IMG/VR virus record: IMGVR_UViG_3300030372_004928
Location: 16,497-80,496 of that record
From: a virus
Taxonomy: Duplodnaviria; Caudoviricetes
Direction: 5' to 3' (one strand)
Length of the DNA: 64,000 bases
The position numbers and the translations under genes are program-made. Below are positions 4,358 through 42,051 of the stretch, one piece after another. A model generated the notes under the pieces. It was given only the letters and a program-made list of their open reading frames with translations. It was not told the DNA's origin and did not search any database. How positions within the stretch are numbered: the first letter of the stretch is position 1; each line of letters begins with the position of its first letter.

Positions 4358-4365
4358 AAAAAATT

Positions 4366-5124: not shown

Positions 5125-6532
5125 TACTAAATATGGTTCAAATAAAAACGGTAGTGGAACATTTTGGGCTGTTACAGGTTTTGGAAAAACTTATGGTACT
5201 ATTCAAGAAATCATAAAACCATTTTTAAATAAAAGTGTAAGTAATTACATTACTATATTAGTTTCAAGAGAAGTCCATTATCATCATTGGATTCGTGAAT
5301 TGAATTCTCATATAAAAAGTTTAGATATAAGAAAAAGAGTAAAAGTTGTAACAGTACAATATCTTATAAAGAATGACTTACGCTTATCTACAAATCTACT
5401 TATAGTAGATGAATTACATAAATTTTATAGTGAAGAATATATTCGATATATAAATGGAGATTATATACAATTCACTTATAATTTAGGATTAACTGCAACA
5501 TTCCTTGACCCTAGAGGTAGACATAGACAGATTTTAGATTTATATTATCCTATAGATATTATCAGTCAAACAGAAGCTTTAGAGAAAGGTTGGATTTCGC
5601 AATTTATAGAATATAATCTTACTGTTAATTTACACCCACAAGAAAAAAAGGAATACATTGGGTATCAAGACCAAATTAACAAGCATCTTCCAAAATTTGG
5701 AGATCATGGTATTAGAGCAGCATTTCTTTGTCATCGAGGAGGAAAAGGAAGAAATGGTATATATAGAACTGCACAAGAATGGGCAGAACAATATGCCAGT
5801 CATATGGGATGGAAATCCAGTATGAGTTCTAGTCATCATATTTATAAATTATGGAATCCTTCAATTATTAGAGGATATGCAAGAAGAGTTGTTGAAAATT
5901 TAAAAAATATCAACGATTTTTTGTATAATAATGATAGTAAATACTGTGCAGCAATGGAAATATTAAAAAAATTCCATAATAAAAAGATTATGACATTTGG
6001 TCAATCTACAAAATTTGCTGACGAGTTAACAGATTGGTTCAACAAAGAGAAATTAGGTGTAGCAGTTTCATATCATACACAAATGAAAAGTAGACCTCTT
6101 ACAAATCAACATGGAGAGTTTATTAGATATAAAACAGGAAAAAGAGCAGGCGAAATAAAGAAGTTTGGTCTTACTACACTTAAAAAGTTAACAGTTGAAG
6201 CATTTATTAACGGAACAGCAAATGTTTTATGTACTGCATCAGCAATGGATGAAAATTTTGATTGCCCTGATATTGAAGTAGGATTAATTACAGCTCGTAC
6301 AAGTAATCCTAATAAACAATTACAAAGAGGGGGAAGAATTAAACGATTACTACCAAAAAACCCTAAAGCAGTAATGCTTATAATTAATTTGTACTGTCAA
6401 GGTACAAAAGATTATGATTGGCTTAGAATTAGTCAATCAAAAAATGAGCATTATGTAAAATGGGTTGAAAGCGTCGAAGATATAGATTTTACTATACATA
6501 ATAACGATGTATACGATATTTCTAGTATTTAA
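5072..6532 (+). CDS. SF2 DNA helicase (crAss-type)
   Basis: Motif I AVTGFGKT, II IVDELH, III LGLTAT, V AMDENFDCPD, VI QRGGRIKR. Confidence 0.9.
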   Translation: MESKTIRQKEFAEKWRNSTKYGSNKNGSGTFWAVTGFGKTYGTIQEIIKPFLNKSVSNYITILVSREVHYHHWIRELNSHIKSLDIRKRVKVVTVQYLIKNDLRLSTNLLIVDELHKFYSEEYIRYINGDYIQFTYNLGLTATFLDPRGRHRQILDLYYPIDIISQTEALEKGWISQFIEYNLTVNLHPQEKKEYIGYQDQINKHLPKFGDHGIRAAFLCHRGGKGRNGIYRTAQEWAEQYASHMGWKSSMSSSHHIYKLWNPSIIRGYARRVVENLKNINDFLYNNDSKYCAAMEILKKFHNKKIMTFGQSTKFADELTDWFNKEKLGVAVSYHTQMKSRPLTNQHGEFIRYKTGKRAGEIKKFGLTTLKKLTVEAFINGTANVLCTASAMDENFDCPDIEVGLITARTSNPNKQLQRGGRIKRLLPKNPKAVMLIINLYCQGTKDYDWLRISQSKNEHYVKWVESVEDIDFTIHNNDVYDISSI

Positions 6533-17503: not shown

Positions 17504-20500
17504 TTAATATAATTTATAAAATTTATAATTTTTATGCATAAAATCAGTTTTAACTTTTTGACTCCAAACAGGAACTAATTTTTGAGCATGAATAGATAAT
17601 TTATTTTCCCCATAATATACCCCACCTTGATATTCTAAATCTTCTGGAGCAGTTATTGGATAAGCTATAACTTCTTTAGATAATCTTAAAATATCTTCCA
17701 TTGTTTTAAATGCTGCTAAAGGATTTTTGATAAGTTTTTTACTTTCATTAATCCATCCACCTCCCATAAATACACCTTCTTCATTAAATCCAACTGCAAT
17801 AGGCATATAAGTTGTTAATTCTGTTACGGTTCTATCTAATTGATAAAGTGTAAGTACTAAAGCAAATGGTGGTTCATCATCATCTCCTTTCAGATATTTA
17901 GCTAAACTTAATAAACCTAATGCCATTGCAAAAGCACCATATTCTGCTACTGTTCTTTTAACATTTGCTTTTTGAGTTTCATTTAATGTATGCCAATGAA
18001 GTTTAGCACTTCCGATAAATTTAGTATAATCTCCAATTATATTTCCTATTGCTTTTAAAGCAGTAATTTGCATTTCTCCTTCTTGTTTATTTTCTTGACT
18101 TTCTTTATAAAGTGCTATATTTTCTTGTATTGGTCTTGTTAAGAAATTCCATGTAGTAACGTACATACCTTCATCATAATGAGAACGTCTTTCATTCCAT
18201 TCAGTTTTACCGAAAGTAGAACCGAATCTTTTAGTCCAACCAGGTCTCATCCATTTACGGAATTGCATAGCTAATCTTCCTAATGCATATTTCTGTAATG
18301 CACCTGCATCTTCTTTATTATATATACCATGAAGATATTGATTAACTCCTAATACTCTCATTTGAAATTCTGCAATTTCATCTTTCTTTAATTTTGTTCC
18401 TTTTTTTAATTTTAATTTACCATCTGTAAATTCATAACTATCATATAAAGTATCAAACTTTTCAAATTCTGCTTTTAATTCTTTTCGTTTCTTTTTATTT
18501 TCAGCAATTACTTTCTTTACATTTTCAGGGTCAGCATTAATCATTTCTTTAGTTATCTTTGTTAATTTATCTTGAACAAATTCATTAAATTTCATTATTC
18601 TTCCATTAACTACTCTATGACTATAAGCCATTGCTAATAAAGTACGATTTTGTAAATTATGTTCTGACATATGTTCAAACATAAATGCTTTATTTGTAAT
18701 AATACCCATTTTATTAAGCATTACATTCCCTAATGCATCGCTTTGATTTTCATTTCCAGCTAATTCTTTAAAATCCATTAAAATAGGAATATGATGCATA
18801 AATGCACTCTGTTTAGAGCTAAAATTAAATGAAGCTTCATCATCAGCAAAATAACTAATTATACCTGTTGTATAAGTTCCTGCAGCTTTTCTCCAATCTT
18901 TACTACTAAAAAATTCACTAGAAACTGCTTCAATTTTACTCATAAGTTCCCCATACACTTGATTATTTAAACTACTATAAGGATTAAAAGCCATACTTTT
19001 AAGAGAAGTATAATTTTGAAGTACTCCTAAAGCTTTTTGCATAGTTCCTTCATCATTCTCAAATTCTTCATAGAAAATCATTCTTAACCAATCATTATAT
19101 CTATCTAAAATTCTACTTCCTTTTGTTCCACTTTTAACTAAATGATCTTCATATCCTGCAGCCCATTTAGCTTTATCTTTTATTGGTGCATTATTTTTTA
19201 AGGTTAATATTTGATGATTTTCAATAAAAGACCTTTTTACTCTAAGCAACTCAAATTCCATTGCTTTTTTATGTTTATGATTTAATGCAGTTTTAATAAA
19301 AATTGGCATTGTCTTAGATAAATCTAATTCTATTGCAGCAGCGTGTGCTTCTTTATTCTCTTTTCTTATTTCTTCATTTAATTTATGATATTTTCTTTTA
19401 TCTTCTATAGACATTTCATCATGAATTTCATGTAATTCTTTTTGATTTAATAAATTATTAAACATAAAAGGAATGAAATGTACTATTTCATTATTTACAT
19501 CTGTAGCTACACCTTTTGTTTGGTCATAATCTCCTGTTTTTCTCCAACCCATTTTAACTGCAAATTCTTCCATAAATCCTTTCATATTTTTAGGAACAGC
19601 AGGTAAATAACCTTTACTAACCATACTAGATTTTGTATGTTCTGTTAAATAAGCAAGTACTGAAGTTAAATATTTATGAAATTCTAATTCACTTGCTGTA
19701 AGATTATTATAATCTTCATTACCGTATACACTTTCTTTAGGTTTATACATTACACTACTTTTCTTAAAAATTCTATTTCCTTTTGGGTCAAAGTAAATTA
19801 ATGTATTAAGCCATTTATCATACGCTCTTGTATCATCACTATTAAGAGGATTTTCTAATTCTTTCCTCTTTTCATCCATTATTATTTGTCGTTCCTCATC
19901 ACTACGTTCTTCTACATTGTTATCGTAGAAATCATTAAGAGTATCTCTGTAAGCTTTTGTACCTGTTTTATATTTTGCAGCATCTTTAAAAGCTTTATCT
20001 CTTTCTGCTTTAAATCTATCATAATCTAAATCAGTAATAACTTTCCCAGTTGATTTATCAATAAATTTATCTAATGATGAACCTGAAGCTTCTAATTCTT
20101 TTAATTTTTCTAACCATTGTTCTGTCATAGCTTTAGTTTCATCATCCATTTCTCTTTTCTTATAAGCATATGCTCTCATTACATTTGCAAAATATCTATT
20201 ATGAGTATCTGCTAATGAATCCATGTTATGTTGCATTAAAGATAAATCTCTTTGAGCTTCAAAAAAATCAATATTAGTATTTAAAACACCTCTACCACCA
20301 CTTAAAGGATTTGATGATATTTCTTGGTATCTTAAATCTAATTGTTGATTTAACATTTTTAATCTCCATTTTAAATTAGAAATATGGTCTAAATTTCTTT
20401 TTAAATCTTGAAAGACAGGATTAATTCTCGTACCATCGCCATAAATAGAAGGTAATTTATCAATTTGAATAACTTGTGACATAAACATATCTACATTGAC

Positions 20501-22723
20501 CATAAAAGCCATAAAGTCTATAAAACCTTTAGGATTTTTTTCTTCTAACTCTTTAATATCTTGCCATTTATAATTTGAATATCCTTTAGTTTTTTGAATT
20601 TCTATTTCATTTGTTTCTTCATTTTTAACCTCTACTACACCAGGATTAAATTTATTTGTTATATTTAAAAGACCTCTTGTAATAAATTTATTATAAGCTA
20701 TAATTGCTAAATTTTCATCGGCAACACTCATTTGTTCTATTAATTTTTCTACAGTCTTTTTATATTTTGCAGCTCTTTCTCCAATTCCTGAAGCTTTTGC
20801 TACTGTTACTGATTTTTGTAAATTAATTATAGCTTCTTCTAACCATTTTTGAACTTCAGTATCTCTATCTATTTGTACTTTTAAATCATTTTGAGTTTTA
20901 ATACTTTCATTTAATTGAGCTGATGCTTTTTCTAAATCTTCTCCTTGCATATAAGCTTGCAACATTTTTTCCATCATTGATTCTAATGGCAAAACTCCAT
21001 CTTTATTTAATCCTTGAACTTCTTCACTTGCAATTGCTACATCAGCGTATCTTGTTTCTCCTTTTTCATTTTTTTGTGCAATACCTTCTAAAGGGATAAT
21101 TGCTAAAGCATGTTCTCCTGTTTGTTTATTATCTTTTACAAATTCAAAACCTTGTCTTTCTAAAATTAATTGGTAAGTAGATAATTGTAAAGAATAACTT
21201 CTAGCTGAAGTATATTCCATATCTTCTATAAAACCTTTAAACATTTTTTTAGAACCGTCTTTCTTATATTTATATTGATAAAAATCGTCAAACTTTCCAT
21301 ATTCTTTAGTTTTCCAATCATATATCATATATTTTCCATCGGGTCTACGAATAAGAAGGTCAATTGTACCTCCTACTCCCATTTCTTCATCAAATACTTT
21401 TACTTCTGGAAATAATTCATAATCTTTTTCTATTAAAGATTCAATAAAATCTGCTATATTATTTATATAACCTTTAACAAGTTTTTGGTCCATTCCCGAA
21501 TAAAATCTAATCCCATCTGCATCTAACCCTCCTTCGGGTTTATATAAATTACTTAATGCAGCATTTATAGAATCTTCTCTAGATTTACCTGCAGTTCTTG
21601 CTTTGATATAATCTTCTGTAATATTATGAATACCTGTACCTTCTTCTCTTTTATCTGCCCAAAAAGTTTCTAAATCTTCTTTACTAACAAAGTTTGCCCA
21701 TTCGCCTTTTCTATTTTTTAATAAAGATTCTATTACTGAATCTTTATCAAATATCCCTCTTAGTTCATCTATAGCAGTTGTTACCCTGTTAATAACTACA
21801 TCTTCTTTACCATCTTTTGTTAATTCTTTAGGAATAATATAGGAACTTTCATCTTCTGTTTTTCCTAATTTTTCCCCTCTTTTAATTAAATCTGATATAT
21901 CTGTTTTTTGTTTTTGTACTTTACTAGATAATTTTCCTGTAAGAACAAATCTTTTTTTACTGCCAGTAAGGGCATAAGCTAACTTCAAGGTTGTATCATC
22001 ATTAATACCTAAATTAACTCCTATCATTCTTATAGCATTACTAAACCATGCTGCCCATCCTTTAATTTTATCTAATATAGTTCCTTTTTTTAGATTTCTA
22101 ATTTTAACTCTTTCATCATAAAGCTTTTGTGCTTCTATACCAATAGCTGTAGTTAAAACTTCTTTACCTAATTGTTCATCATTTAATTCTTTATATAATG
22201 CAGCAACTTGTTTCCACAATTCACTTCCTCTAAGATTCTCAATTCCTTTTTTAAGCACTCTATCATTCTGTAATAAATCAACAAATAAGTGACTAAATTC
22301 ATGAAATACACTATCCTTTCTAGCATTTTTACTATTAAATTTTACTGTAGTTTTTCCATTTATAGTAAATACTTGACCTGCATCAAGTATATTTGTATCA
22401 AATTTTACATCAATATCTAAACCTAAATCTTCAAATATTGTTGTTAAAGTTTCTATTTGTTCAATAGCTGCACTATTACTAAAACCACCAGTATCATTAA
22501 ATATTTCTAAATTTTTTGTTTCTCCATCTAAATTCAAGAAATATAAATTATCTGTTACTATAGCTTCTCCATTGCTATCAAGTTTTCCTGTATACCAATC
22601 TTTAAAAGTAGGAGTCTGTGAAGTTGCCCAAGCTTTTAATGCAGTTTTATGCCCATGTACTTTATAAACTGAATCATACAATTTAGATTTATTACCATTA
22701 GGTGCAGTATATTTACAAGCCAT
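17504..22723 (-). CDS. Large ejected virion protein (crAss RNAP-cluster partner) with zincin-like HExxH and a PD-(D/E)XK nuclease-like domain
   Basis: FHEFSH at 22289-22303; GTGIH...E...GGTIDLL...IYDWKT...LQLSTY at about 21150-21650; adjacent to the RNAP polyprotein as in crAss-like phages. Confidence 0.75.
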   Translation of the reverse strand: MACKYTAPNGNKSKLYDSVYKVHGHKTALKAWATSQTPTFKDWYTGKLDSNGEAIVTDNLYFLNLDGETKNLEIFNDTGGFSNSAAIEQIETLTTIFEDLGLDIDVKFDTNILDAGQVFTINGKTTVKFNSKNARKDSVFHEFSHLFVDLLQNDRVLKKGIENLRGSELWKQVAALYKELNDEQLGKEVLTTAIGIEAQKLYDERVKIRNLKKGTILDKIKGWAAWFSNAIRMIGVNLGINDDTTLKLAYALTGSKKRFVLTGKLSSKVQKQKTDISDLIKRGEKLGKTEDESSYIIPKELTKDGKEDVVINRVTTAIDELRGIFDKDSVIESLLKNRKGEWANFVSKEDLETFWADKREEGTGIHNITEDYIKARTAGKSREDSINAALSNLYKPEGGLDADGIRFYSGMDQKLVKGYINNIADFIESLIEKDYELFPEVKVFDEEMGVGGTIDLLIRRPDGKYMIYDWKTKEYGKFDDFYQYKYKKDGSKKMFKGFIEDMEYTSARSYSLQLSTYQLILERQGFEFVKDNKQTGEHALAIIPLEGIAQKNEKGETRYADVAIASEEVQGLNKDGVLPLESMMEKMLQAYMQGEDLEKASAQLNESIKTQNDLKVQIDRDTEVQKWLEEAIINLQKSVTVAKASGIGERAAKYKKTVEKLIEQMSVADENLAIIAYNKFITRGLLNITNKFNPGVVEVKNEETNEIEIQKTKGYSNYKWQDIKELEEKNPKGFIDFMAFMVNVDMFMSQVIQIDKLPSIYGDGTRINPVFQDLKRNLDHISNLKWRLKMLNQQLDLRYQEISSNPLSGGRGVLNTNIDFFEAQRDLSLMQHNMDSLADTHNRYFANVMRAYAYKKREMDDETKAMTEQWLEKLKELEASGSSLDKFIDKSTGKVITDLDYDRFKAERDKAFKDAAKYKTGTKAYRDTLNDFYDNNVEERSDEERQIIMDEKRKELENPLNSDDTRAYDKWLNTLIYFDPKGNRIFKKSSVMYKPKESVYGNEDYNNLTASELEFHKYLTSVLAYLTEHTKSSMVSKGYLPAVPKNMKGFMEEFAVKMGWRKTGDYDQTKGVATDVNNEIVHFIPFMFNNLLNQKELHEIHDEMSIEDKRKYHKLNEEIRKENKEAHAAAIELDLSKTMPIFIKTALNHKHKKAMEFELLRVKRSFIENHQILTLKNNAPIKDKAKWAAGYEDHLVKSGTKGSRILDRYNDWLRMIFYEEFENDEGTMQKALGVLQNYTSLKSMAFNPYSSLNNQVYGELMSKIEAVSSEFFSSKDWRKAAGTYTTGIISYFADDEASFNFSSKQSAFMHHIPILMDFKELAGNENQSDALGNVMLNKMGIITNKAFMFEHMSEHNLQNRTLLAMAYSHRVVNGRIMKFNEFVQDKLTKITKEMINADPENVKKVIAENKKKRKELKAEFEKFDTLYDSYEFTDGKLKLKKGTKLKKDEIAEFQMRVLGVNQYLHGIYNKEDAGALQKYALGRLAMQFRKWMRPGWTKRFGSTFGKTEWNERRSHYDEGMYVTTWNFLTRPIQENIALYKESQENKQEGEMQITALKAIGNIIGDYTKFIGSAKLHWHTLNETQKANVKRTVAEYGAFAMALGLLSLAKYLKGDDDEPPFALVLTLYQLDRTVTELTTYMPIAVGFNEEGVFMGGGWINESKKLIKNPLAAFKTMEDILRLSKEVIAYPITAPEDLEYQGGVYYGENKLSIHAQKLVPVWSQKVKTDFMHKNYKFYKLY

Positions 22724-22763: not shown

Positions 22764-25700
22764 TTAACAATTTTTACCTTTTCTATTTATTAATGGTTTT
22801 GTTGCTTTATTTTCTTCATTAGTTAATATATCACTATTAAAAGGTTTTTTACTAAAATAATGAATACCATTTTCAATTTTTTCATATAATCCTGTATTTC
22901 CTCCTTTATTTACTTTTAAATAAGTTTGTAAATTTTGTAAAGCTTTTACTGTTGCTATATTTCCCGAACCAAAAGTAGGAGAAGTAGTTCCATCTTCATT
23001 TTTTTGTGCTTTTATCATAACTACTCCATTAGCTCGTAATACAGAATATATTTTTCCATAAACACTAGTATTTTTAAATTTACCTTCTTCATTAAAAATA
23101 GAATCATCTACAGTTTTAGCAGTAGTGTAACCCATTATAGTTGGAAATGTAACCATTATTTTATCATTATCAGTAAATTCTGACTTATTAGCTAATTCTC
23201 CAAAAGATTTAGTTAAAAGTTTTAAATCTGTACTTACTATTTCTTCAGTAGCATTTTTTCCTATTTCACTGCCTATAAAACCTGTAGCAGTAGTATACAT
23301 AATTTTATCTGGAGCATTTATATTTTCTAATTCAAGATTATTGTAAGTCATAAAGTTAGCATTAAGATCATTTAAACCAAATTCATTATTTCCTTGAATT
23401 GCAATTTCAAAATCATTTTGACTTCTACTAACTTGATTTTCTTTAATAAAAGATTTTTCACTAGATTCAGTTATATTAATACTACCTAGTTTATCTACAG
23501 GATAAAAATAAGTAGAACCATCTTTTTCTATATATTTTTTATATAAAATATCTTCTTGTTTTATAGATTCATTATTTATTAATAGTGTTTTAGTTCCTAC
23601 TATATAATCAGATTGAACTACTCTTAAATCTTCATTTTGATATTCAGATGTAGTTACTTCTATAAATTCTTTAGTTGCACCCATAATAATGGTTTTCCAA
23701 TCAGGTGTACCATTTATTGTACCTTTTTCACCTAATTCTCTTTTTGTATATACTCTAGGTACAATATCAGTATTAAACCAATTACTTCTTATAAATTTAT
23801 CTTTAATATCTTCATATCTATCTAACAAGAAATTATCCATTTTAGATTTTTCTTTAAGATCATATAAGAATTTATCTAAACCTATTTCTTTAAATACTTC
23901 TGTAGGAATTAATTTACTAAAACTATTTTTATTCATAGTTAAGCCAGTAGTAAAGAAAGAATATTTTACTAAATCTTGAGCTAATGATTTTTCAAATTCA
24001 TCATTAGAATTCCACATTTCAAGAAAAGAATCAATAATAGTATCATCTAATAAAGAATCTGTTTTTGTATTTTGGAATTCTATAAAATGCATAGAATTTT
24101 TCTTTACATCTTTTTCTCCTAATTTGTGAGTTAAATAGTTTAAAATATGAGTATCATTTTGAAGTTTATCTTTAAGTTTATTCTGCATTATTTGTAGTTT
24201 ATTTGCAGTACTTAATTTATTAAAATCTTCAATACTTATATTTATATCTGTTTTAACTTCCAAATTTTCTGCACCTAAAATTCTTTGTTTTGTATTATTA
24301 TTCTCATAATTTTCAGAAAAGAATTCAAATTCATTTTGTAAATAAGTTAAAATATATTGAGATAATTTATCTGCATTTTTTGGATTAAAATGTATACCTG
24401 TATCATTAGTAAAAACTTGTATAAATTTTCTAAACGCTACTGAATGTTGTATAAATAATGGAGATAATATTTCTGTTGCTGCATCAAAAGCTTCTTCTTT
24501 ATAAGCTTTAAGTACAGGATATTTACTATCTTCTCCATAAACTGCTATAGTTGCAGGTACAGTTTCACCATTTACTTTTGCAAAAACTCTAGCATCACTT
24601 TCAACTCTTATAACTGTATCTTCTCTAATTGTTCTTTTTTCTTCTGCAGTTGTTTCTTCTGCTCTTTTTCTTCTTAATAATTCATTAGCAGTCATTATTT
24701 CTCCATTAAACTCTACTCTTGTTTCTCCATCAACTTTTAAATTTCTTAATTGACTAAATTTCATATAGTAAGTAGCTTTCTGTATACTTTTATTAAGCAT
24801 TTCTGGTCTTGTCAACGAAGGTCCAACATCTGTTCTATCTGATGCTGTAGCTTTTATCATATCATCATAACCTTCTCCTGCTTTTTTATATCTTTTAAAC
24901 ATTTCAAGAATTTTAATTTGGTCTTGAAGATACCTAGCTTTTTCTATAGGAGTTAAATTATTATAATTACTAGATACACTATTTTTTATATGATTTTTAA
25001 GTGTATCTACATCAAAAGCAAAAGATTCAGAAGTATCTATATTAAATAAATCTTTTAATTCTGTTGTATCAGGATTTATATCTTCTCCATTACTTATTTG
25101 AGAATCAAATGGTTCAATTACAGCAAATTCTTTTCCGTCTATAGTTAATATTTTTACATAATCTTTTACATTTCTAAGAAAATTATTTTTTGGGTTTCTT
25201 GCAATTTTATATAATTCAGTAATATATCTATTTTTTATTGCTTCAATTTCTTTACCTAAATTTTCATCTTCAGTAAATCCTTGTGTTTCAAAAAATAATT
25301 CACTTAAATCATTTAATATAGGTTGACGAATAAACATACTTGTATATCTAATATCCATACCTGTATTCAACATTGTAATAAATGTATTAAATGTGTATGT
25401 ATTTACATTAGGTGGAAGTCCTTCTTTTACTATATCTAATGTCATTGCTAAAACTTGACTAGCATGAATCATTGTATTGTCTCCATTTACATTTGTAAAT
25501 GTACCATCATTATTCCATCCTAAATTTTTATGTTTAACGGTAACATAATCTTTTTGAGGTTTAGGTTTAGGTTTAGCAGGTTTTGCCATTTTAGGCATAG
25601 AAGGTAAACCTGTGTCTTTAATAGGTTTAACTCTTCTCATAGTTATAGATATTCTATAACTACCTTTAGGATAAGTTTTGCCGTCTATTTCAGTAGTTAT

Positions 25701-28700
25701 TTCAGGTAAAAAGCCATCTACTTTATTTGGTGCAGTTCTATGCCATACTTTTCTATTTTTTCCTTTAATACCAAAAACATAACCATCTCCTGCATTTAAT
25801 TCTGTAACACCTTTACCGACTCTTTCTATTGAAAAATTACCACTACCACCTATATTAACTACTAAAACAGGATAACCTATAGTATCACTTGCTTCACTAA
25901 CATCTTGATGGGAATGTATAAAATGATTTTCACTATATAAATTAATAATAGCACCGTCATAATCACTAGCATCAACTCCTGTAGCTTTTGTCATTAATTC
26001 TTTTAATCTATCATTTACTGGTTCTAATGGCTCGCCATTTATAGATTTATCAAAATAACCAAATTTTGATCTAGTTCCATCCATACCTCTGTCAAGAATA
26101 GTACCTAAATCTATTGGTTCTTTATTTGGATTATTATCTTTATAATCCCATCTTAAACCTAAACCAATCATTACATTAGCATCTTTTCCTTTATTTGTTA
26201 CAGCTCCTTGTCTTTCTAAAATAGGTTTAAGCATTTCAAATAATTCAATTTGTTCTGCTTCTGTAAGTGCATTCCTTTTTACTTCAACTCCATCAATTAT
26301 TTTTTCAGTTTTAATTTTTGAAGGTTGTTTAATTTCATCAGTAACTTGTTCAGCAACTTGTTCAGATTTTGACCATACACCAAGAACATTACCATCTACA
26401 GTTATTTCAGAATAATTATAACCTTTAGCTTCTAGATTTTTATAAAGCCTTTTTTCTCCTTCATTATAATCACTATCATCTATATAATCTTTATTATCAG
26501 CAATAATAGTAGCACCTGCTTCCAAAGCTTTAATAGCTTCTCTTATAGTTTTATCTTGTTGGGTTTTTCTTAAATCAGCTGCACCTCTTTTACCCCCTAT
26601 AGAAACAAATATTACATCATTATCTCCATAATTACCAGTGTTAGCGTATTCTCCTGCTTCTTCTGCATAATGTGCTGTACTGCTATCTTTAATACCTTCA
26701 GCAAAACCTATATATTGTGTAGCAATTTTAGCTTTTGCTTTAGCTTTTTTATCAGCTTTTTTTATAGGAGTGACAGTAAACACATTTTTAGCAGAATCTA
26801 TTTTAGCAACTTCTTCAGTAATTACATCTCCTAATTCTGCTTCTTTCCTCCATAAACCAAATGTTTGTCCATCAATTACTGTTTCTGTATATACTGCACC
26901 TTCTGAATCTAAAAAGTCTCTTAAAGCTTTTTTTGGAGTATAACTTCCTGCTGAATTTAATGTACCTATATTATCAGTAATAATAGCTGCACCAGATTGT
27001 AAAACCTTTTTCAATTCAGCTTTTGTCTTTTTTAATCCTTCTCGAAAATTTCTACTATAAGAAACAAGTACAACATCGTCTTTAGTATAATTTCCACTAT
27101 TTACAACAGATTTATCTTTTATTTGGTCTTGATAAAATCTTGTATTATTATTTCCTGCAGAACCAAATCCTACAAATTTTGTAGATACTGTAGCCATTAA
27201 TGGAGTTTTAGTATCTCTTTTATCTTTACTTACAAATGGTTCTAAAGTAAATACAGTTTGTTTATCTAAATCTTCTGTAGTTTCTGCTTGTATATTTCTT
27301 ACACCAGGTCTAGATTTTTTATTTAAAGTTTCAACATTTTCTTCTCCATATTTTTCTTTTAATTCTTTTTCAGAATAAACTTTAGTTACCCTATTTAACT
27401 TTCCTTCTTTCATTAACTTTTCATTTTCTTTTATCTCTTCTTTAGTTAATGGGGTAGTTCTATAATTTGTATGAAAAGCTAATTCATCTGCTAAAAACAT
27501 TTCAACAACTTGTGCTACACTTAAAAAAGTATTACTATTTGCAGCCATACCTTTTAATGCAATACCAGAAATATTTTGTTTTCTATATTCTAATTGAGCA
27601 TAAGCTGTTGCAGGATTTAAGTGTTCAACTTCTTTTCCTAATAAAGTATTTATTTCATCAATAACATCTGCAGCATCTTCAAAAGATTGAGAAGTTACAA
27701 CTCCACTAAAGTGATCGGGATGTAATAATTTAGCTTTGAAAATATCTAAAATACGATTATCTCTTGCTTTTCTTGTATTAGCTTGTGCTTCAGATAATTT
27801 ATCGTATTCTTTTCTTAATGTTTCTAAATTTTTTGCACCTAATAATGCTTGATATTTTTTACGATTATTTAATGCTTGTTTCTCTTTCTTTTTAACTTCT
27901 TCTACATAAGTATTATATTCTTTAACATCTTTTAAACGTGATATAATAAAGTTTTTAGTTTCTTTAACACTTTTTTCTAATGCAAATGCATTTGCTTGAA
28001 TACTTCTTAATCGTAAATCTTCTTTAGTATTTCTACCCCAATGTTGTAAACCGTATTGATTTTGAACATATTCAATTGTAGCTTTTGCTCTTTCTTTTTG
28101 TACTTCTAGATAATTAAATAATTCATCAATTTCAGTAAAGTTTGTTTGAGCCCCTTCATTAAAAACATCAAATATAGCTTGTAATTGTCTTGTTGTATCT
28201 TCTGCAGTTTCTTGCTTTACTTCATGTAAATTCTGTTGAGTAGTATTAAATCTTTTTACTTGTGTATTTAACTTTTTAGCTTCTTGGTCTGGATTATCTT
28301 TTAAATTTTCAAGTAATTTTTTTGCTGCTCTAGATTCTAACCAAGCAGTAAATCCTTCTTCTCCTTTTTCATAATAATCATTTTTTTGATAAGTTCTTTT
28401 ACCATCTATATCTGTAGTAGTAAAACTATGATACATAATATATTCCTTATCAACATCAAAGTCAAATCCTTTAGCAGTAACATATTCTTGAGGTAGAACA
28501 ATTGTACTTCCACTTTCTACAGGCAGAAATCCTACAACTTTAAATACAGTAAACATATAATCTTGTTCTGAAGGAATTCTATAAGAAATCATAGTTCTTA
28601 ATTCTTCAGGTATATTGTTTATATCATCAAGTACATATTCTCCTTTTTCATTTTTAACATAAAACTGTTTACTCCATGCAGGTAAAAGTGCTTCAGCAGT

Positions 28701-31700: not shown

Positions 31701-34700
31701 TTTTTCTGCAAGAATATAATGACTAATATTTTTATTTGCACTATCTAATTTAATTCCATCAGTGCTATATAATATTACATCAACATTAGGTCTAGCTTTT
31801 TTAAATTGTGAAACCCAAGCAGATTTAAATAAAGGATCAGTTTGTAATTTATTTAATAACTCTTGAAAAGCAGGATTATGTTTTCTCATTAATTCCAATC
31901 TTGCACTCATTTCATTGAAATCTAATGAACCTACCATATTCCTTTGAATGTAAGGATAAACTTTATTAAAATCTAGAAAAACAGGTAGACCTAAAAATGT
32001 ATCTTTAGAATCAAAGCTTTCAGTAGTCATTATTTCTCCTTTCACAAAATTACTTACAGTATCTTTTTGTGAAGTTCCAAATATTAAAGAATCATCCCAT
32101 TCTTTTTTTAATTCAGTAGATTTCTCTAAATTAACTAATTCTTTATTTACTTCAATTCCAAATTGTCTATTGACATAGTTTACAGTTTTATCATACAATT
32201 CATTATAAATTGCATAATTATTTCTTTGGTCAAGTACTTTTTCTATATTTTGTCTTTTTTGAGATTTTCCTTCAGCTCTTTTTTCTGATTCATACTGACG
32301 TAATTTCTTTTTAATAAATTCTCTAGGAGATTTACTAGGATTATTTGCTATATCTTCTAATGTTAAATTAGGATTTTGTTTTCTATAAGTTATTAATTCT
32401 CTAGCTAATAAATTTATAACTTCACTTTGTTCCCCTCTTGTCAGACCACCTACTGGTTTTTTATACCTAGTTAATTTCTTAGCAAATTCAACCATTTGTT
32501 CATCTGGTTTGAAATTGAATTTACCCGAATCAATATCTTCAAATAATTTATCTAATTTAGAAACATCTTTTTTAGTAAAGAAATTAACAATCAAATCTCT
32601 CAATTTAGCAAAGAATCCTTTTACTTTTTTAGATACTTTTTTAGTTGCACCTTTTTTCAGCATATAATCCATGAAATCATCAGCCATTAATTCTTCTAAA
32701 GAAAGATTAGTTCTATTGCCGTATTTTTTTCTTCCTTCTTGATATAGTTCTTTTCTTTGTTCTTCAGTTGTATATAACCAAAAAACAACGTGAAAAGCTT
32801 CATGATATGCTGTACCTTTTGGAGCATCAATACTTAAACGAACCATTGCTTCACTAAATAAACCCCAAGCATCTGGCCCTTTAGTTTTTATTAAGCCTAC
32901 TATATTAGTGTCTAATTCTATATTATCTCCAAAAACTTTTTTCCACCATTTTTTAACTTCTTCTATATTTTCTTTTTCTTTTACTTCTTCAACTGTTTCT
33001 GTTGCTATTTTTTTTCTTCTAAAACTAGAAGTTATACTCATTTCTACTTTACCTTCTTGATTAGTAGTTTTAACAACATCACCCCAATATCTTTCTTCAA
33101 GAAATCTGTCTAATTCTGTAGCAATATCCCAGTTATCTACAACAACTTTTTGATTAGCAAGAAGATTATCTGCTAATCTTTGAATATCTGCATCTACTTC
33201 TGTATCATCTGCATCTGTTTCTTCTGTATCAACTTCTTCTTCTGTATCATCTTTAGTGTCTGTTTCTGTTTTTTCTTCAAATAAAGGTTTACCTTCTTGA
33301 CCATGAAAATATAAATCATCACTAATACTTATAATTAAATGACTATTTTTTCTTTTACCTGCATTTTTATTAGTTACAGAAGGCAAAGGATAACCATTTT
33401 TATCAGTAACAATTTCTCCTTTTTCATTTTCTTTAGTAGGAGGTTTTCTTAAATATCTTAAATCAGTTAATAACATATCAGAACTTAATAAATAATTAAA
33501 ATAATTATTGTAGTCCATTTCGCCATCGTTATAAACTTCGTTATGTTTTTCTAAAGCTTTAAGATTAATATTATGCTTTTTTTGTTGTAATGCTTTTTTT
33601 ATAACATCTTCAATGATTTCTTTTCTACCTTCTAATTCTTCAGATTCTTTATTATATAAAGATAAAGTATTAGGTTTTTTCGAAACAGATTCAAAAGGTA
33701 CGATATTTCCATCTTTATCTGTAACTTGAATATTTAAAACTTTTTTAGTTGAATCAGTTGTTTTAGGTGCTGTTATATAAATAGTTAATGTATCTCCATC
33801 ACCATAACTGAACTGCATTTTATTATCAAATATCTTAAAACTATTATCTCCTATATTATCAACTTTTGCATCTAAATTTACATTTAAAATTGTACCAAGA
33901 GTTTCTTTTAATTTTATAAAATCTTTATCCTTTTTTAAGGTACTCCATTCTGTTCCTTGAAATTCTCTTAATTTATCTGCTAATTCAAAAATTAAATTTG
34001 TAGCTCTTTGTGATATAGCTTCAGATAGTGTATTTATATCTAATGGTACAGGAATATATGTATTTAATTCTCCTGGTATTGAATTTGCACCTTTAACAAG
34101 TATATATAATTTACCAAAATCATATTTTTCATCATGATTAAAAAATGCTCCTGTATCTGCATTTCTTGTAAATTTTTGTCCATCGTAATTAACTAATTGA
34201 GTTTCAGATGCACTTTTTGGGTCTAAATAAAATATATTATTAAGATTAATTTGAGCATTAGGAGGTAATCCTTCATTTAATTGTTCATTTAAAGATTCAA
34301 ATTCTCCTACTTGAAGTAAATTACCACTTGTTTTTCTTGTGACTCTAGTACGTAAATCACTTATAACAGCTGGAGAATAATTGTGTTGTTTAAATACATT
34401 TGTTATTTTCTTTACAGTTTGTAATTGTTTTTCTAATAAGTAAATATGTGAAATAAAAGGTTTATTTATTTCATTACCTTCTAATTCATCTATTCTCCAT
34501 TGAATTAGTTTTCTTTGTGCTTCAGTTACTTTAGGTTCTTCAAGTCCTTTGTTTAATCTATCAATGTCTGTTATTTCATTAATTTGTTTTGCAAAATTTA
34601 AATCCTTTTGTATAGATTTAACAGAATTTAAAGAACCTAAAACAACCTCTTCTCTAACACCAGAACCTTGTGGACTTATATACTTAATCATTATTCTATA

Positions 34701-37700
34701 ATCTCCACCTTTTATTTCATAAACAAAAAACCTTAATTCTGTATCAACTCCAATGTCAGGACTTAATAACCACTTTAATTGTTTTTCTAATTTGTCTTGA
34801 GTCATTTTTGGTGTAAAGCCGTATAATCTTTTCATTTCAGCTTTATAATGATTAACATCTATAACTCCATCGGGTGTAATACCTATTAAACTATTAATCC
34901 AAATATTATTAGAATTCAGTACATTTTCTCCACCATAAATACTATCAAAAAATTCTTCTGCAGTTTCTTCTCTATTTTCTGGTTTAAGGTTGTTATCCTT
35001 TATATATTTTTCAACATCTTTTACTAAGACATTACCATTTTTACCTGTAGGTGTAATTAAATTTTCATCTATATTATATCCTTGACCTTTTAATGTATCT
35101 ATTAAATTTTTGGCAGATTGTGTTGGAGTAAAGTTAGGTGCAGTATTTTTAACAGCTGCAGCTTGATTAGAGATAAACCAATCTTTTAATACATTTAATT
35201 TATTTTTAATAAGTAATTCTTTAATAGCATTAGCTACTTCATTTTGAGTAGTATAAATAGCATTAAAGAATATACTATCAGCCAGTAGATAGGAAATTAA
35301 CTCTTCGGGATAACCTGTAGGATTTTTAGATTCTTTTCTTAATAAATCTATAATAGATTGAACATGTGCTTTATTTTCTAAACTAGTATCAGCATCTTGT
35401 AATAATGCTATAATTTCTCTTAATTCTTTATTAAATTCTTCTCTACTTTCAGGTATAGTATCTCCTTCAAAATAAGGAATTGCTTTATGTAATTCTATAT
35501 GAATTAATTCATGTTCTAATAATTCAACTAAAGCAGCATAAGGTTTATTTTTAGTTAAATAAGAAGCTAAAATTACAATTTCTTTATTAACAGCATCAAA
35601 AGCAGCAGGATTCTTTTTTGATACAAGTTTAGAATCTTTAGCTAAAGTTATATTTAACTTATAACCCGATGAATGTAATAATCTTGCTAACTCTTTTGTT
35701 CTTTTATTTACTCCTGTAATAGTTACAAGAGCTTCCATTAAGCTTGTAACTTCCTTAATATCTGGAAATACATCTTTTATTTTTAAATCAGTATAGTGAG
35801 GAGATTCTTCAGTTATTTCAGTAATTCTGCCTAATTCTGCTGCTTCTTGAACTCTTTGAAAAGGTAAATATAAATTTACACCTGCTCGTTCAATTACAAC
35901 AAATTTATCCCCATTAGCATTTTCATATATTTCTATTATTTCAACAACCTCATTATTTGAATCTTTATATTTTGCTCCTACTTTAATATAACCTAATTCT
36001 GTATAGGTTTGAGTAGTAATAAGATTATTTAATAGAAAAATTTTATTATTTAATAACTGTACTGTATTAGGGTATTCTTTTTGTGCTTCTTTTAATTTTT
36101 GTAATTGTGCAATTTTTTCTTCAATATCAAGTTTTGTATTCTTTAAAATTTTATTTATTCTATTTATAAAATTTCTAAAAACATTTTTTTGTTCTTTAGC
36201 TATAGCAAGTTCAGCATCTTTCGTTAAAGCTACTTGTTCTAATAATTCTGCAGGAGTTTTAGAAGAATCTTCTATAGTTTTATTATAAGATACAGTATCA
36301 TCTTCTGGATCACTATCATCATCTTGTTCATCCTCTTCAAGCAATTCTTTTGTTTCTATACTTTTTTTAATTGCTTCAATTTGATTTTCTAAATACTTGT
36401 ATGTTTTAGAATCTTTTTCTTTAGTTTCTAATTCTGATTCTAAATAAGCTAACGCTCCTTGTAAATCATTCTTTTTAACAAGTTTATCTACTTCAGCTTT
36501 TACCTCAGTTTCATAAGCATTTAATTCTATAAGTTCTTCAGCTTCTTTTACTAAATTATTAAATTTAGTTCTAGTATCATGTAATTTTTGTGCTCCTTTA
36601 TCTGTTAAGAATTCTTCAGATTGTGCTTTTATTTGATATAAATCAACTTCACTTTCAACCATTTTATCAAAATGTTCCTCAAGTGTTTTAACTAAAGTAT
36701 CATCTTTTGACGCTTTAGTTAATTTTTTCGCAATAGCTTTATTTGATTTAGATTGTTCTGAATTTGAATCTTTAAATTCAGGATATAATGCATCTATTTC
36801 TTCTACTTTCTCTAAAGCAAAATCTAACCCTCTTTGTGCATTTTCTTCTTTATATTTATTGTTTCCTTTTTTTGCTTGTTCTTTTATTTTTTTTAATCTT
36901 TCAATCATACTTAAATATGCATTTCTTTCCCAAAAACTTTTAAGAGAAGGATTTGCTGCAAGTACTTTATCTACAAAAACATTATTACTTAAATCTGCCC
37001 AATTTAATTCTCCCTTAGCAATATCATCTAAAATTTTAGTTATTGAACCGTCATTACTTACAAGTTCTTTTAAAATTGTTGCTTTTGTATCTTCAGAGTT
37101 ATCTCCATCAATATCTAAATTCATTACTCTTCCGTAATGTTTATTAAAAGATTTTTCTGCAGCTAATACTTCTTCTTTTGTTTTAGCAATAGCTTTATCA
37201 ATGCTGCCCATCCCTTGTTCCTTAATTTCTTCAGTAGTCATACTATTGAGAATATCTTGCTTAAATTGCCCATTCTCTAATTGCTCTAAAAGAACATTTG
37301 TAGAACGATTAGCTGCTGCAAAAAATCCCATACTTGTACCCATTTGATTTTTCTTAGCATTAATTAAAATTTCTCCTTCTTCTTTAGTCATCTCTCCATC
37401 AGCTATTTTAGTTTGTACATCTTTTAGAAATTTAACATATTTAGTTGTTTCTTTTTCTCTATAAGCAATAGTCTCTAATTGTGCTTTTGCTGTATCTTTA
37501 GCATCACTTCCTGTAAAAGCAGTATTAATTCCTTCAAATGCAATACCTCCTAATGCTCCCCAAAAAGCTACTTCACTTAAATGAGGGTCTTGTAAATATT
37601 CTCCTAATCTTTGACTAAATGTACTATCATCTTCTCCTAATAATTGTTTAGCTAAAACATGACCTTCTTTTTCCCCAATAAAGTTTATCATCTCCTCTAA

Positions 37701-38904: not shown

Positions 38905-41900
38905 TTACAAATTCTCCATAAATTTTAAATCAATATGCATACCTGTTTTAACATTATGGTTCCACCACTTTAAATTATATCCTTTAATTTTTTTATAATT
39001 TTTACTTCCTTGAATATCTTCACTATTAGCTTCTAACCATTTTAATACTTCTGTTCCTACAGTATTTGTACTATTTATATCTGCCCCCATACCTTTTAAA
39101 TGACCGCTATCTCTAGCACCACCTATACTAGCATTATAACCTATACTTCTTGTTAAAGAAGTAATAAGCATTTCTCCTGCACCATTTGTCATTTGTTTTC
39201 CATTAGTTTTAAGTAATCTTTGAAATTCATTTTTAAATTTTGAATCAAGATAAGCTGCACTACCTATTTCCGTTCCATTTTTAGTTTTAATTGTTGCAAA
39301 AGGTAATTCATTATCTGTTACATGTTTTAATGAACCTAAAGGAACAGAGTAATTATTACTAACTCCTGCAAATTTTTCTAAAATACTTTCAACATCGTAT
39401 AAATCTTTATAACCTTTTTGATAACTTGAATTCCATACAGGTTTACCTTTATTACCAGATTCTTGATCGTATTCATATACTTTTATATCATAAGTTGTAC
39501 TGCCATTAGGTTGTACATTTCTTGTAACTGTTGCTTTTCTATCTGCAGTTAAACTAATAGGTAAATCAAGTTTTTTAATAGTTCCATTTTTTACATCAGG
39601 TGTAGGAGGGAAATTTTGAAACCAAGACAACCTTTGTTCTACATGTGTATGTATTCTTTTAGCTGCATAATCATTTAATTGGTCATAACCTTTATTACCT
39701 GTACCTTCAATTTTAAATACTCCCCCACCTACATCTTTTTGTAATTGCCCTTGTTTTAAATAATCTAAAGTTAAATTAGAAAGAACAGTAGTACCGTCTT
39801 GTTCAAAAAGAATTACTTCTCTACGTTCTGCACCTTTAGATTTATCTTTCGGGTCATTCCAAGTTGTTTCTATAGCTTTATACCCATATCCTACTCCAAA
39901 AATATAATCCATAGTTGGTCCAATTACTGTTAAATTATCAGCATTAATATTTAAACCGCCTGATATTTTACCATTTTTACCTGTTGCCCAATCTTGTTTT
40001 TCTCCTGTCATAGCATCATATACCCCTAAACCCATTAAATTAGATTTTACAAGAGCCGTAGCACGGGAAGAATAATTAGATGTAGCATCTCCTGCTTTAT
40101 CTATAGTACTCATATCTAAAACTGGTACTGCAATACTTTTTTGTTCCCAAATTTCATTAAGATTTTTAGATATTGTTTTCATATCAGAAGTGCCTGTAGA
40201 TGCAATATTTTCTGCTTCTTTAAAATATTCTTTATATTTTGATTTATATTTTGAATTATGTCTTGAACCTTTTAATGCATCATCTTGAAATCTTGTTTCA
40301 TATTCTGTTAATTCATTATATAACTCTAATTGTTTTTTTTGTTGAGCAGTATAATTTTCTCCAAATATAGCACCCATATATGTACCTGGAGGTTTTAAAC
40401 CTAAATTATAAGCTACATTTGCAAAAGAAGAATTTGGAATACCTAAACCAGTACTAAAACCTCTAGAAACTTTTTCCCATACATTCTCAAAATCATCCTT
40501 ACCTATTACTGATCTATATAAACTCTCAAGTTTATTTTTATAAGATTTTATATCATCTAATATAATTGGGTCAGTATCTTTATCTAATTTTCTAAAACCA
40601 CCTTCTGTATCAATTTTTCTACCTAGTTCTTTTTCTGATGCAGCTACTGCTTCTGCATATATTTTTTCGTACATAGCTACATCATCTAAAGCTTTGTCTC
40701 TTAACATAGTTGTATTACTTAATTCAGTTTTATACCCAGAAACATCTCCTCCTTTTGCTTCTTCAGCGAGTATATTTTTATTAATATTTTTTATTGTTTG
40801 TTCATGTACTGCTACATTAGTTACTAAACCTTTTACAATATTATCATAATTAGTTACTGAATTAGGTCTATCTGATAATTTCATACCTCCAGTTAAAGTA
40901 CCTAATGCTATTTGATTAGATAAAAATACTTGTTCATCTCCTCCGTCATTCTTTACTTGGTTTTTCTTTAACCAAGTTGCGTAACTATCTCTAAGATCAG
41001 TTAACATTTCTTTTGTGTAAGAAGCTTTCATTGTAGCTCCTTGTATATCATCTTGTATTCTTACATTTTTAAAATGAAGTTCAGTTAATTCATCATCACT
41101 CATGGCAAAAACTTTATTTTCATCATAACCTAATATATTAACTAAATCTATTTGCATTTTTGTTTTTGCATCTTGAAAACTTTCTCCTCTACTTTCAGCA
41201 TAAATTGTGGGATTAAGTCCATCTCTTTTATATTCAAAAGCAAGTCTCCTATTAATTTTAGGGTCTTGTAACATTTGTTTATGTGCAGCTATAGCAACTT
41301 CTTCAATATCCACTGCTTCTTCTTTCAAAACAAAATTAAGACCTGCTTCCCCTGCTATAAAATCTCTTTCTGCTTTATGCCAAGTTTCTACACCTGTTGT
41401 TGGGTCTACTTTTTTAACGTAACCTTGTCCACCTCCAAGTCCTAAAAATGTGTCTGCTTTATAATTTGCAAGAAAATCATTTGCGGCAGCTCCAATATTT
41501 TGCACTTCAGGTATATTCATTTGTTTCCATTTATTTTCCCATGCTCCTGTTTTTTCATTATAAGTAACTCCACCTCTTTCACTATCTAAACGGTCTGCTT
41601 CTCCTTGAGCGTATATAACATCTTCTTCTTCATATTTTCCTGTAAGAATTCCTGTTTTATTTAATGCTATTTGTGCTTCTCTATCTTTTGCACTTTCTAA
41701 TGCTTTAAGTAACCCACTATTTGTAGCTATATTTTTAGCAGCCATTGATACAGCAGTATTAGCATCTTCATAATTACCTGATATTTTATATGATTCTAAT
41801 TCTTTTTGAAATCCTGCTAAAGCATTTGTTCTTTTACTTTCATCAGACGAATTTAATTTCATTTGAGCCAACATTGTTTCAGCAGTATTCATATTAGAAA

Positions 41901-42051
41901 TAGCTGTGTTGTATTTATCTTGCAATACATCAGCAGTTTCTTTCATTCTATCTATTGGCAAACCAACATAAGTAGGTACATATGCACTATGTGTTAAACT
42001 GCCGAAAGGATTACGAGGTTGTGTATAAGTTGGATATTGTTGTTTAGCCAT
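38905..42051 (-). CDS. Ejected virion protein with C-terminal M15-type (LAS) peptidoglycan peptidase
   Basis: ITSLTRS...SGHLKGMGADI...MHID fits the M15A pattern SxHxxGxAxD...HxD; gene lies next to the RNAP gene. Confidence 0.72.
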   Translation of the reverse strand: MAKQQYPTYTQPRNPFGSLTHSAYVPTYVGLPIDRMKETADVLQDKYNTAISNMNTAETMLAQMKLNSSDESKRTNALAGFQKELESYKISGNYEDANTAVSMAAKNIATNSGLLKALESAKDREAQIALNKTGILTGKYEEEDVIYAQGEADRLDSERGGVTYNEKTGAWENKWKQMNIPEVQNIGAAANDFLANYKADTFLGLGGGQGYVKKVDPTTGVETWHKAERDFIAGEAGLNFVLKEEAVDIEEVAIAAHKQMLQDPKINRRLAFEYKRDGLNPTIYAESRGESFQDAKTKMQIDLVNILGYDENKVFAMSDDELTELHFKNVRIQDDIQGATMKASYTKEMLTDLRDSYATWLKKNQVKNDGGDEQVFLSNQIALGTLTGGMKLSDRPNSVTNYDNIVKGLVTNVAVHEQTIKNINKNILAEEAKGGDVSGYKTELSNTTMLRDKALDDVAMYEKIYAEAVAASEKELGRKIDTEGGFRKLDKDTDPIILDDIKSYKNKLESLYRSVIGKDDFENVWEKVSRGFSTGLGIPNSSFANVAYNLGLKPPGTYMGAIFGENYTAQQKKQLELYNELTEYETRFQDDALKGSRHNSKYKSKYKEYFKEAENIASTGTSDMKTISKNLNEIWEQKSIAVPVLDMSTIDKAGDATSNYSSRATALVKSNLMGLGVYDAMTGEKQDWATGKNGKISGGLNINADNLTVIGPTMDYIFGVGYGYKAIETTWNDPKDKSKGAERREVILFEQDGTTVLSNLTLDYLKQGQLQKDVGGGVFKIEGTGNKGYDQLNDYAAKRIHTHVEQRLSWFQNFPPTPDVKNGTIKKLDLPISLTADRKATVTRNVQPNGSTTYDIKVYEYDQESGNKGKPVWNSSYQKGYKDLYDVESILEKFAGVSNNYSVPLGSLKHVTDNELPFATIKTKNGTEIGSAAYLDSKFKNEFQRLLKTNGKQMTNGAGEMLITSLTRSIGYNASIGGARDSGHLKGMGADINSTNTVGTEVLKWLEANSEDIQGSKNYKKIKGYNLKWWNHNVKTGMHIDLKFMENL

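Follow-up and report, generated by a model that had tools for sequence, protein, structure and literature searches.

A giant RNA polymerase polyprotein with an interrupted catalytic core

The DNA analysed here is a 64,000-nucleotide stretch (referred to as the window) of IMG/VR virus record IMGVR_UViG_3300030372_004928, positions 16,497 to 80,496, and derives from a marine crAss-like phage. The window contains a giant open reading frame (ORF) that encodes a crAss-type virion RNA polymerase (RNAP) polyprotein of 5367 residues, the catalytic core of which is interrupted by a cassette holding two tandem α/β domains and an AlkB-like dioxygenase domain (Table 1). The identity of the polyprotein is supported by several lines of evidence. 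Using phmmer, the giant ORF matches phi14:2 gp66 (PDB 6VR4) over gp66 residues 964–1392 with an E-value of 3.7e-33, and a second stretch matches gp66 residues 1636–1784. The tblastn search of the giant ORF retrieved the RNAP catalytic subunits of crAss002 and crAssphage together with about 140 other crAss-like records. Homology to the barrel region of gp66 is present, and the bridge-helix and trigger-loop blocks were both located by hidden Markov models (HMMs). The catalytic motif DFDVD satisfies the DFDxD motif of the gp66 type, which has Ile or Val at position 4. The ORF is flanked by virion and ejection genes, namely those of an M15 peptidase, a glucosaminidase, and a PD-(D/E)XK nuclease, and the window also has a crAss major capsid gene (Crass_capsid PF23898, E 2.6e-71). 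No part of the giant ORF has a match in PHROGs. The gp66 polymerase is packaged, injected, and transcribes the early genes of phi14:2 (10.1101/2020.03.07.982082). By analogy with gp66, the product of the giant ORF would be packaged and injected as well.

We determined the borders of the insertion from BLAST alignments with four homologs. In the alignment with crAss002 gp33, ORF residues 2551–3785 correspond to gp33 575–1808 and ORF residues 4392–4998 to gp33 1813–2355. With crAssphage gp44, the two aligned stretches are ORF 3688–3851 with gp44 1534–1671 and ORF 4441–4678 with gp44 1672–1875; hence gp44 residues 1671 and 1672 are contiguous where the ORF has residues 3852–4440. The two closest metagenomic relatives, P0042 and P0043, share 38–49% identity with the window protein along its whole length, and their alignments stop at ORF residues 3854 and 3856 and resume at 4441 and 4440, respectively. 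Because of these borders we define the insert as residues 3852–4440. A first-pass annotation, made from the letters of the window and a list of its ORFs, had already pointed to the DFDVD loop, to the conserved block GIALKGMAANS, and to about 640 residues of distinct domains that followed them. The loop and the block were both found in the sequence. The insertion is likewise real with respect to the homologs, which do not have it as ordinary conserved core; its size was overestimated, as about 55 residues of the interval (3796–3851) belong to a native linker that relatives also possess. The core-like sequence resumes at HKNLGW (residue 4446), as annotated.

The place of the cassette in the enzyme was derived from the structure of gp66, in which the bridge helix spans residues 1529–1559 and the trigger loop residues 1598–1636 (Drobysheva et al., 10.1101/2020.03.07.982082). 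The GIALKGMAANS block aligns with the bridge-helix region, and ORF residue 4486 aligns with gp66 residue 1636. In two other insert-bearing polymerases, P0091 and P0141, homology to gp66 resumes exactly at residue 1599, right after their inserts; in P0141 it breaks off at gp66 residue 1583. The cassette of the window protein lies just before the residue matching gp66 1598/1599. Therefore, the alignments place the cassette inside the catalytic core, within the short stretch that links the bridge helix to the trigger loop, at the N-terminal base of the latter.

Table 1. Features of the giant ORF and its neighbours, with residues of the ORF and positions in the window
Feature	Residues	Window	Strand	Evidence or remark
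Giant ORF, 5367 residues		22764-38867	minus	crAss-type virion RNA polymerase polyprotein; ORF list and translation
HExxH motif HELIH	1119-1123	35499-35513	minus	sequence motif
HExxH motif HEAFH	2022-2026	32790-32804	minus	sequence motif
Catalytic DFDVD motif	3469-3473	28449-28463	minus	aligns with gp66 1361-DFDID-1365
Bridge-helix block, GIALKGMAANS...	3768-3786	27510-27566	minus	aligns with gp66 region containing bridge helix; bridge-helix HMM
Native part of bridge-helix/trigger-loop linker	3787-3851	27315-27509	minus	common to relatives (gp44 to ORF 3851; P0042/P0043 to 3854/3856)
Insertion, 589-residue cassette	3852-4440	25548-27314	minus	in-frame; absent from crAss002 gp33, crAssphage gp44, gp66, P0054, P0058-61
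N-side linker, 17 residues, acidic	3852-3868	27264-27314	minus	precedes first conserved segment of repeat 1
α/β copy 1, divergent	3869-4010	26838-27263	minus	HMM match at 3869-4009
α/β copy 2, canonical highly conserved form	4027-4170	26358-26789	minus	up to 74% identity to homologs
AlkB-family Fe(II)/2-oxoglutarate dioxygenase domain (predicted)	4193-4416	25620-26291	minus	Pfam PF13532
C-side Pro/Lys-rich linker, 24 residues	4417-4440	25548-25619	minus	core homology resumes at 4441
Trigger-loop block	about 4448-4486	25410-25526	minus	phmmer: ORF 4486 onward matches gp66 1636 onward
Degenerate third α/β-like domain	about 5181-5330	22878-23327	minus	HMM with filters off
Downstream protein of 1739 residues with PD-(D/E)XK nuclease domain		17504-22723	minus	PF12705, E 4.6e-7
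Large upstream proteins with Peptidase_M15 and glucosaminidase domains		38905-42051 and 42147-44669	minus	

Authenticity of the insertion

Five further members of the 90%-identity protein cluster of the window protein (from Tara and ENA) carry the insert with both junctions kept. They differ from the window protein at 4–40 positions, none of which is inside the insert. One member of the cluster has an N-terminal truncation; for P0001, JGI/IMG and ENA are both given as sources. The reading frame runs uninterrupted through the insert, and the GC content at third codon positions (GC3) is 0.066 in the insert and 0.080 in the whole ORF. A chimeric assembly, which would have undone the first-pass annotation, is ruled out by the junctions shared with the five other assemblies and by a GC3 that matches the host gene. 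An intein was rejected as well. Within the insert, Pfam detects neither a Hint nor an endonuclease family, and the junction residues are R3852 and D4441 instead of the Cys, Ser, or Thr nucleophiles that an intein requires. An intron-encoded ORF was rejected, as the insert is in-frame, equals the gene in GC3, has no endonuclease family, and is not flanked by direct repeats, for which we searched.

Some crAss-like phages are rich in inteins and introns (PMC7886860). P0053, a metagenomic RNAP polyprotein of 5698 residues, has Hint, homing-endonuclease, and LAGLIDADG domains in the precomputed Pfam annotation. Unlike the window protein with its non-intein cassette, this related giant polyprotein thus seems to contain a genuine intein.

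Domains of the cassette

The dioxygenase domain matches Pfam PF13532 with 43.2 bits against a cut-off of 31.2 (E 6.5e-11), and a homolog of it, P0002, matches the full-length PF13532 profile with 50.4 bits. The hhalign comparison with Escherichia coli AlkB gave a probability of 85% and an E-value of 6.6e-6. In this alignment, H4320, D4322, H4376, R4405, and R4411 correspond to AlkB H131, D133, H187, R204, and R210, respectively. All five catalytic residues are thus kept, comprising the HxD...H iron triad and the RxxxxxR 2-oxoglutarate motif. The domain shares these motifs and the Pfam family with E. coli AlkB; it differs in that the N-terminal substrate-lid region of AlkB does not align with it, and in being part of a fusion instead of a free protein and an equivalog. 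From its sequence, we assign the dioxygenase as AlkB-like, not as an AlkB ortholog. The tblastn search with this domain against 50,697 GenBank phage genomes gave no match, PADLOC gave none, and NCBIfam returned a weak alkb match and nothing else. The linker that closes the cassette is rich in Pro and Lys, as the first-pass annotation had described (residues 4422–4439).

The dioxygenase is preceded by the two α/β copies, whose tandem arrangement had also been recognized in the first pass. Their mutual identity is 29% (E 5e-16). Copy 2 is the conserved one, sharing 60–74% identity with its homologs; copy 1 shares ca. 30% and has lost the YNxGE motif. Family-invariant residues, among them N4076, Y4080, S4089, and E4138, are kept in copy 2 only. 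An AlphaFold2 model of copy 2 has a predicted local distance difference test score (pLDDT) of 93.7 and displays a small three-layer α/β fold. The prediction was successful for this repeat and failed for the cassette as a whole: the AlphaFold model of the entire insert is poor outside repeat 2, with a mean pLDDT of 56, and the N-side linker is among the low-scoring parts of this overall poor model.

We compared the copy 2 model with known structures and found no convincing relative. Foldseek against the PDB gave a best E-value of 0.014 with a TM-score of about 0.3, VIA-align wide gave a best Z-score of 5.1, a weak similarity to Rossmann-like methyltransferases, and the search against BFVD gave a best E-value of 0.013. 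By sequence, the α/β domain found nothing in the PDB either, whether searched directly or as a profile, and tblastn against the same phage genomes (E ≤ 1e-3) had no match. The domain has no family in Pfam, PHROGs, NCBIfam, or PADLOC. A Pfam scan of all 38 members of the α/β alignment gave no consistent family; DUF6483 appeared in six of them, below its cut-off. Since the domain matches no Pfam model, no LPD family held by Pfam was detected. On the basis of the model, we describe it as an unnamed, putatively Rossmann-like domain. Its probable role is that of an enzyme or adaptor that binds a small ligand or a nucleotide, with the two copies acting as a pseudo-dimer.

A weak, degenerate third α/β-like domain was observed at the C-terminus of the polyprotein. 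With HMM filters off it scores 8.3 bits, and the homologous places of P0042 and P0043 score 10 and 23.3 bits, respectively; it was not among the results of the genome-wide profile search at E ≤ 0.01. This domain may be a relic of the module's usual C-terminal position.

The same slot in other polymerases

We surveyed the slot between bridge helix and trigger loop by locating both blocks with HMMs in 64 crAss-type polymerases. The gap is 33–86 residues in 57 of them (41 in gp66) and 100–108 residues in two. The other five carry large inserts, with gaps of 194–682 residues. These frequencies are biased and not population values, as the set was collected using the insert or its flanks as queries. 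Specifically, the gap is 194 residues in P0091 and 201 in P0141, each with one α/β domain, 232 in P0042, with a domain that has a weak ASCH match (E 0.034), 342 in P0043, with an unnamed domain, and 682 in the window protein. The P0043 domain received a "SLOG-like" label by eye alone. The survey of slot occupants proposed in the first pass thus revealed other domains in two relatives and a single α/β domain in two more. An IMG/VR locus search with the trigger-loop flank found no relatives.

A tree of the RNAP core was used to follow the inserts. The insert-bearing rows require at least three changes on this tree. The window protein, P0042, and P0043 form one clade with a Shimodaira–Hasegawa-like approximate likelihood ratio test (SH-aLRT) support of 100, and what they carry at the shared junction differs from one to the next. 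The sister of P0091, inside the phi14:2 clade, has no insert, and neither does P0146, the sister of P0141. Hence the slot has been filled by at least three independent gains. Taken with the gap survey and the differing content of sisters, this makes the slot a recurrent insertion point with cassette replacement.

A pool of shared modules

The α/β domain has 480 representative clusters (50% identity) at E ≤ 1e-3. Most of the long matches are crAss-type RNAP polyproteins, in which the domain usually sits N- or C-terminal to the core, often 500–700 residues after the trigger loop. It adjoins AlkB in several proteins, in either order, and its neighbours elsewhere include NADAR, ART-PolyVal, cpYpsA, DUF7831, PD-(D/E)XK, SF1 helicase, and Zeta/kinase (AAA_33) domains. 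The slot domains of P0042 and P0043 are found again in other members of the same set. Stand-alone α/β genes of 145–155 residues occur in unrelated non-crAss phages. These distributions show that the modules are shuffled, as a common pool, among phage proteins of the polyvalent type, crAss-type RNAP polyproteins included.

Two of the stand-alone genes were inspected in their surroundings (L009:2252-2719 and L012:6001-6438). One is on a contig with a T7-type RNAP, three genes upstream of a Tad2-like gene; the other is on a 136-kb contig, in a replication and nucleotide-metabolism region among PolA, ThyX, UDG, and SIR2. In eight proteins (P0026, P0028, P0030, P0044, P0050, P0051, P0056, and P0057), the α/β domain is itself split by a nested domain of 70–290 residues. 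The break corresponds to ORF residues 4073/4075, just before the ANTGNY motif, and the nested domain of P0026 is cpYpsA.

Comparison with known systems

The closest known systems are the polymerases phi14:2 gp66, crAss002 gp33, and crAssphage gp44. They share with the window protein the single-chain two-barrel architecture, the DFDxD motif, bridge helix and trigger loop, and the position in a block of virion and ejection genes. In contrast to the window protein, none of the three has enzyme domains in its core, and the window protein is the larger fusion; the blocks separated by about 41 residues in gp66 are 682 residues apart in the window protein. In terms of position, the cassette resembles SI3, a trigger-loop insertion of the bacterial β′ subunit that is very large in cyanobacteria. 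SI3 consists of sandwich-barrel hybrid motifs, has no enzymatic activity, and is vertically inherited. Both are large insertions tolerated at the trigger loop of a two-barrel RNAP. Unlike SI3, the slot described here holds swappable enzyme modules and is at the N-terminal base of the loop. Given the three-layer fold of repeat 2 and the AlkB Pfam match, the likeness to SI3 looks like an analogy of position only.

With respect to content, the cassette resembles the polyvalent proteins, among which N4-type virion RNAPs are fused to ART, lysozyme, PBECR, and metallopeptidase domains (Iyer et al. 2017, PMC5512222). In both cases disparate enzyme domains are on one polypeptide, which for the window protein is predicted to be delivered with the virion; in the window, a single ORF of the virion gene block combines the RNAP core with AlkB and α/β domains. 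The α/β module also keeps company with the ART-PolyVal, NADAR, cpYpsA, Zeta/kinase, PD-(D/E)XK, and helicase domains of polyvalent proteins. The polyvalent RNAPs are of the T7-type N4 kind with terminal fusions, whereas the passengers of the window protein are within a two-barrel catalytic core. AlkB has no occurrence in PMC5512222, which does not mention the crAss two-barrel RNAPs either. AlkB domains are embedded in the replicase polyproteins of plant RNA viruses (Flexiviridae), where they repair RNA and their proposed role is the repair of methylation damage (PMC2553587, PMC544882). The common feature is an AlkB-family dioxygenase within a viral polymerase polyprotein. The difference is that Flexiviridae replicases are RNA-dependent enzymes of eukaryotic viruses with AlkB between other domains, whereas the window protein is a DNA-dependent virion RNAP of a DNA phage with the domain in its catalytic core.

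Our full-text literature search returned no paper connecting AlkB, or enzymatic inserts at the trigger loop, with the polymerases of crAss-like phages (Crassvirales). The giant proteins of the transcription block have been called multidomain, and the arrangement described here is unmentioned (Yutin et al. 2021, PMC7886860). What is already known comprises injected multi-effector proteins and the crAss virion polymerases; what is new is a slot in the catalytic core that has repeatedly taken up cassettes, and an as yet uncharacterised family of highly conserved domains. No phage enzyme acts in the host cell earlier than an injected virion RNA polymerase, and swappable enzyme modules can reside in the catalytic core itself as well as at the polyprotein ends. 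This extends the polyvalent-protein idea to two-barrel polymerases and adds a permissive, reused insertion point beside the trigger loop, at which passenger domains could perhaps be built into single-chain RNA polymerases. The first-pass annotation had proposed the polymerase as a chassis that delivers nucleic-acid-processing enzymes. As far as the architecture goes, this holds up, as the core is interrupted, the slot reused, and the modules pooled; the "nucleic-acid-processing" label is justified for the AlkB part alone.

Possible role of the cassette and alternative explanations

With moderate confidence, we interpret the region as a lineage-specific effector cassette of the polyvalent type that protrudes from the polymerase core as a loop and is delivered together with the core, its effector function being a prediction. 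The flexible linkers would allow the cassette to loop out at the surface of the polymerase while bridge helix and trigger loop are undisturbed. SI3 provides a precedent, as this large insertion in the trigger loop of bacterial β′ is tolerated and the polymerase elements still work. Because the cassette is located inside the core and not at an end, it would remain with the active polymerase even after processing of the polyprotein. By remaining there, it would be packaged and ejected with the polymerase and could act in cis, both on the phage DNA as it enters and on the earliest transcripts. AlkB may then reverse lesions of the 1-methyladenine and 3-methylcytosine type in single-stranded template or nascent RNA, which would otherwise block early transcription. 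A more specific version of this proposal, which we regard as rather unlikely, makes the bridge-helix/trigger-loop linker a dedicated exchangeable cassette site. There, a built-in demethylase would repair or de-modify template or nascent RNA during transcription, i.e., transcription-coupled direct reversal by one polypeptide, and the α/β domains would represent a new family of coupled enzymes or ligand sensors. If AlkB does act in cis, lesion reversal coupled to transcription would have a compact model in this arrangement.

Several observations speak against our interpretation, in addition to the bias of the slot survey. The same modules are outside the core in most related polyproteins. Therefore, adjacency to the trigger loop is not needed for module function, and the slot may mark a permissive loop only. 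The AlkB part scores 21.7 bits against a cut-off of 231 for the bacterial AlkB equivalog (NCBIfam TIGR00568), neither its sequence nor a profile found a match in the PDB, and its pLDDT is below 50 in the model of the whole insert. Being this remote from TIGR00568, with no PDB match and a poor model, the domain may have a substrate other than classical alkylation damage.

A possible, if unlikely, alternative is that the cassette is released by proteolysis at both linkers, through zincin-type motifs of the same polypeptide. The polymerase would be left as two chains split between bridge helix and trigger loop, and the freed α/β–AlkB protein would act in trans, e.g., on host defence or host nucleic acids. 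Such a split exists naturally in the archaeal A′ and A″ subunits, which are divided between bridge helix and trigger loop. The insert ends are both linker-like in composition (an acidic 17-mer and a Pro/Lys 24-mer), the ORF contains the HELIH and HEAFH motifs, and the sister P0042 has a weak SprT-like match (E 0.0012). The same modules are free-standing or terminal elsewhere. Moreover, the metallopeptidase domains of polyvalent proteins are predicted to process the proteins that contain them (PMC5512222), and cleavage of the fused polyproteins is expected by Drobysheva et al. (10.1101/2020.03.07.982082). Against release, no cleavage-site consensus is known, and the P0091 insert abuts the trigger loop with ca. 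5 linker residues, so that a protease would hardly have space to act. For release, a polyprotein of 5000 residues also offers many junctions between its proteins that would serve equally well, yet the modules were placed in the core at least three separate times.

Improbable in our judgement is a cassette that serves as structural or regulatory bulk at the trigger loop, tuning loop movement, pausing, or self-inhibition before packaging in the manner of SI3, with its chemistry incidental or lost. Its location at the base of the loop, the family-invariant residues lost in repeat 1, and the unrelated domains in the same slot of sister phages are all consistent with such a role, but the AlkB catalytic pentad is complete and the modules are also present at a distance from the core and as stand-alone genes. 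Furthermore, repeat 2 is 60–74% identical to its homologs while the RNAP cores of those phages share ca. 25%, which indicates a constraint on the domain's own function. Highly improbable is an assembly artefact or a selfish element, i.e., a chimera, an intein, or an intron-encoded ORF that is lost before the polymerase becomes active. The intein- and intron-rich background of some crAss-like phages and the Hint and homing-endonuclease domains of P0053 would fit a selfish element; the identical junctions in five further assemblies, the intact frame, the equal GC3, the R/D junctions, and the lack of Hint and of direct repeats contradict it. The effector cassette delivered within the polymerase is hence the reading we favour.

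Genome setting and other features of the polyprotein

The genome record is 80,496 bp long with a CheckV completeness of 100%. The N-terminal half of the polyprotein has the two HExxH motifs listed in Table 1. The Pfam scan of the window protein gave no match to zincin-like metallopeptidases. In the sister P0042, the equivalent region has the SprT-like match mentioned above, which is below the cut-off, and a match to the E3-binding family PF02817 (E 7.5e-5). From sequence, the HExxH region is a candidate processing protease, and the E3-binding match a candidate peripheral-subunit-binding-like domain. The GC3 of ca. 8% across the giant gene reflects an extreme AT bias compared with the 27% GC of the genome. 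The large M15 and glucosaminidase proteins encoded upstream are probably ejected wall-degrading proteins. Downstream of the polymerase is the gene for the PD-(D/E)XK protein, and the same arrangement was observed after P0042 on its contig.

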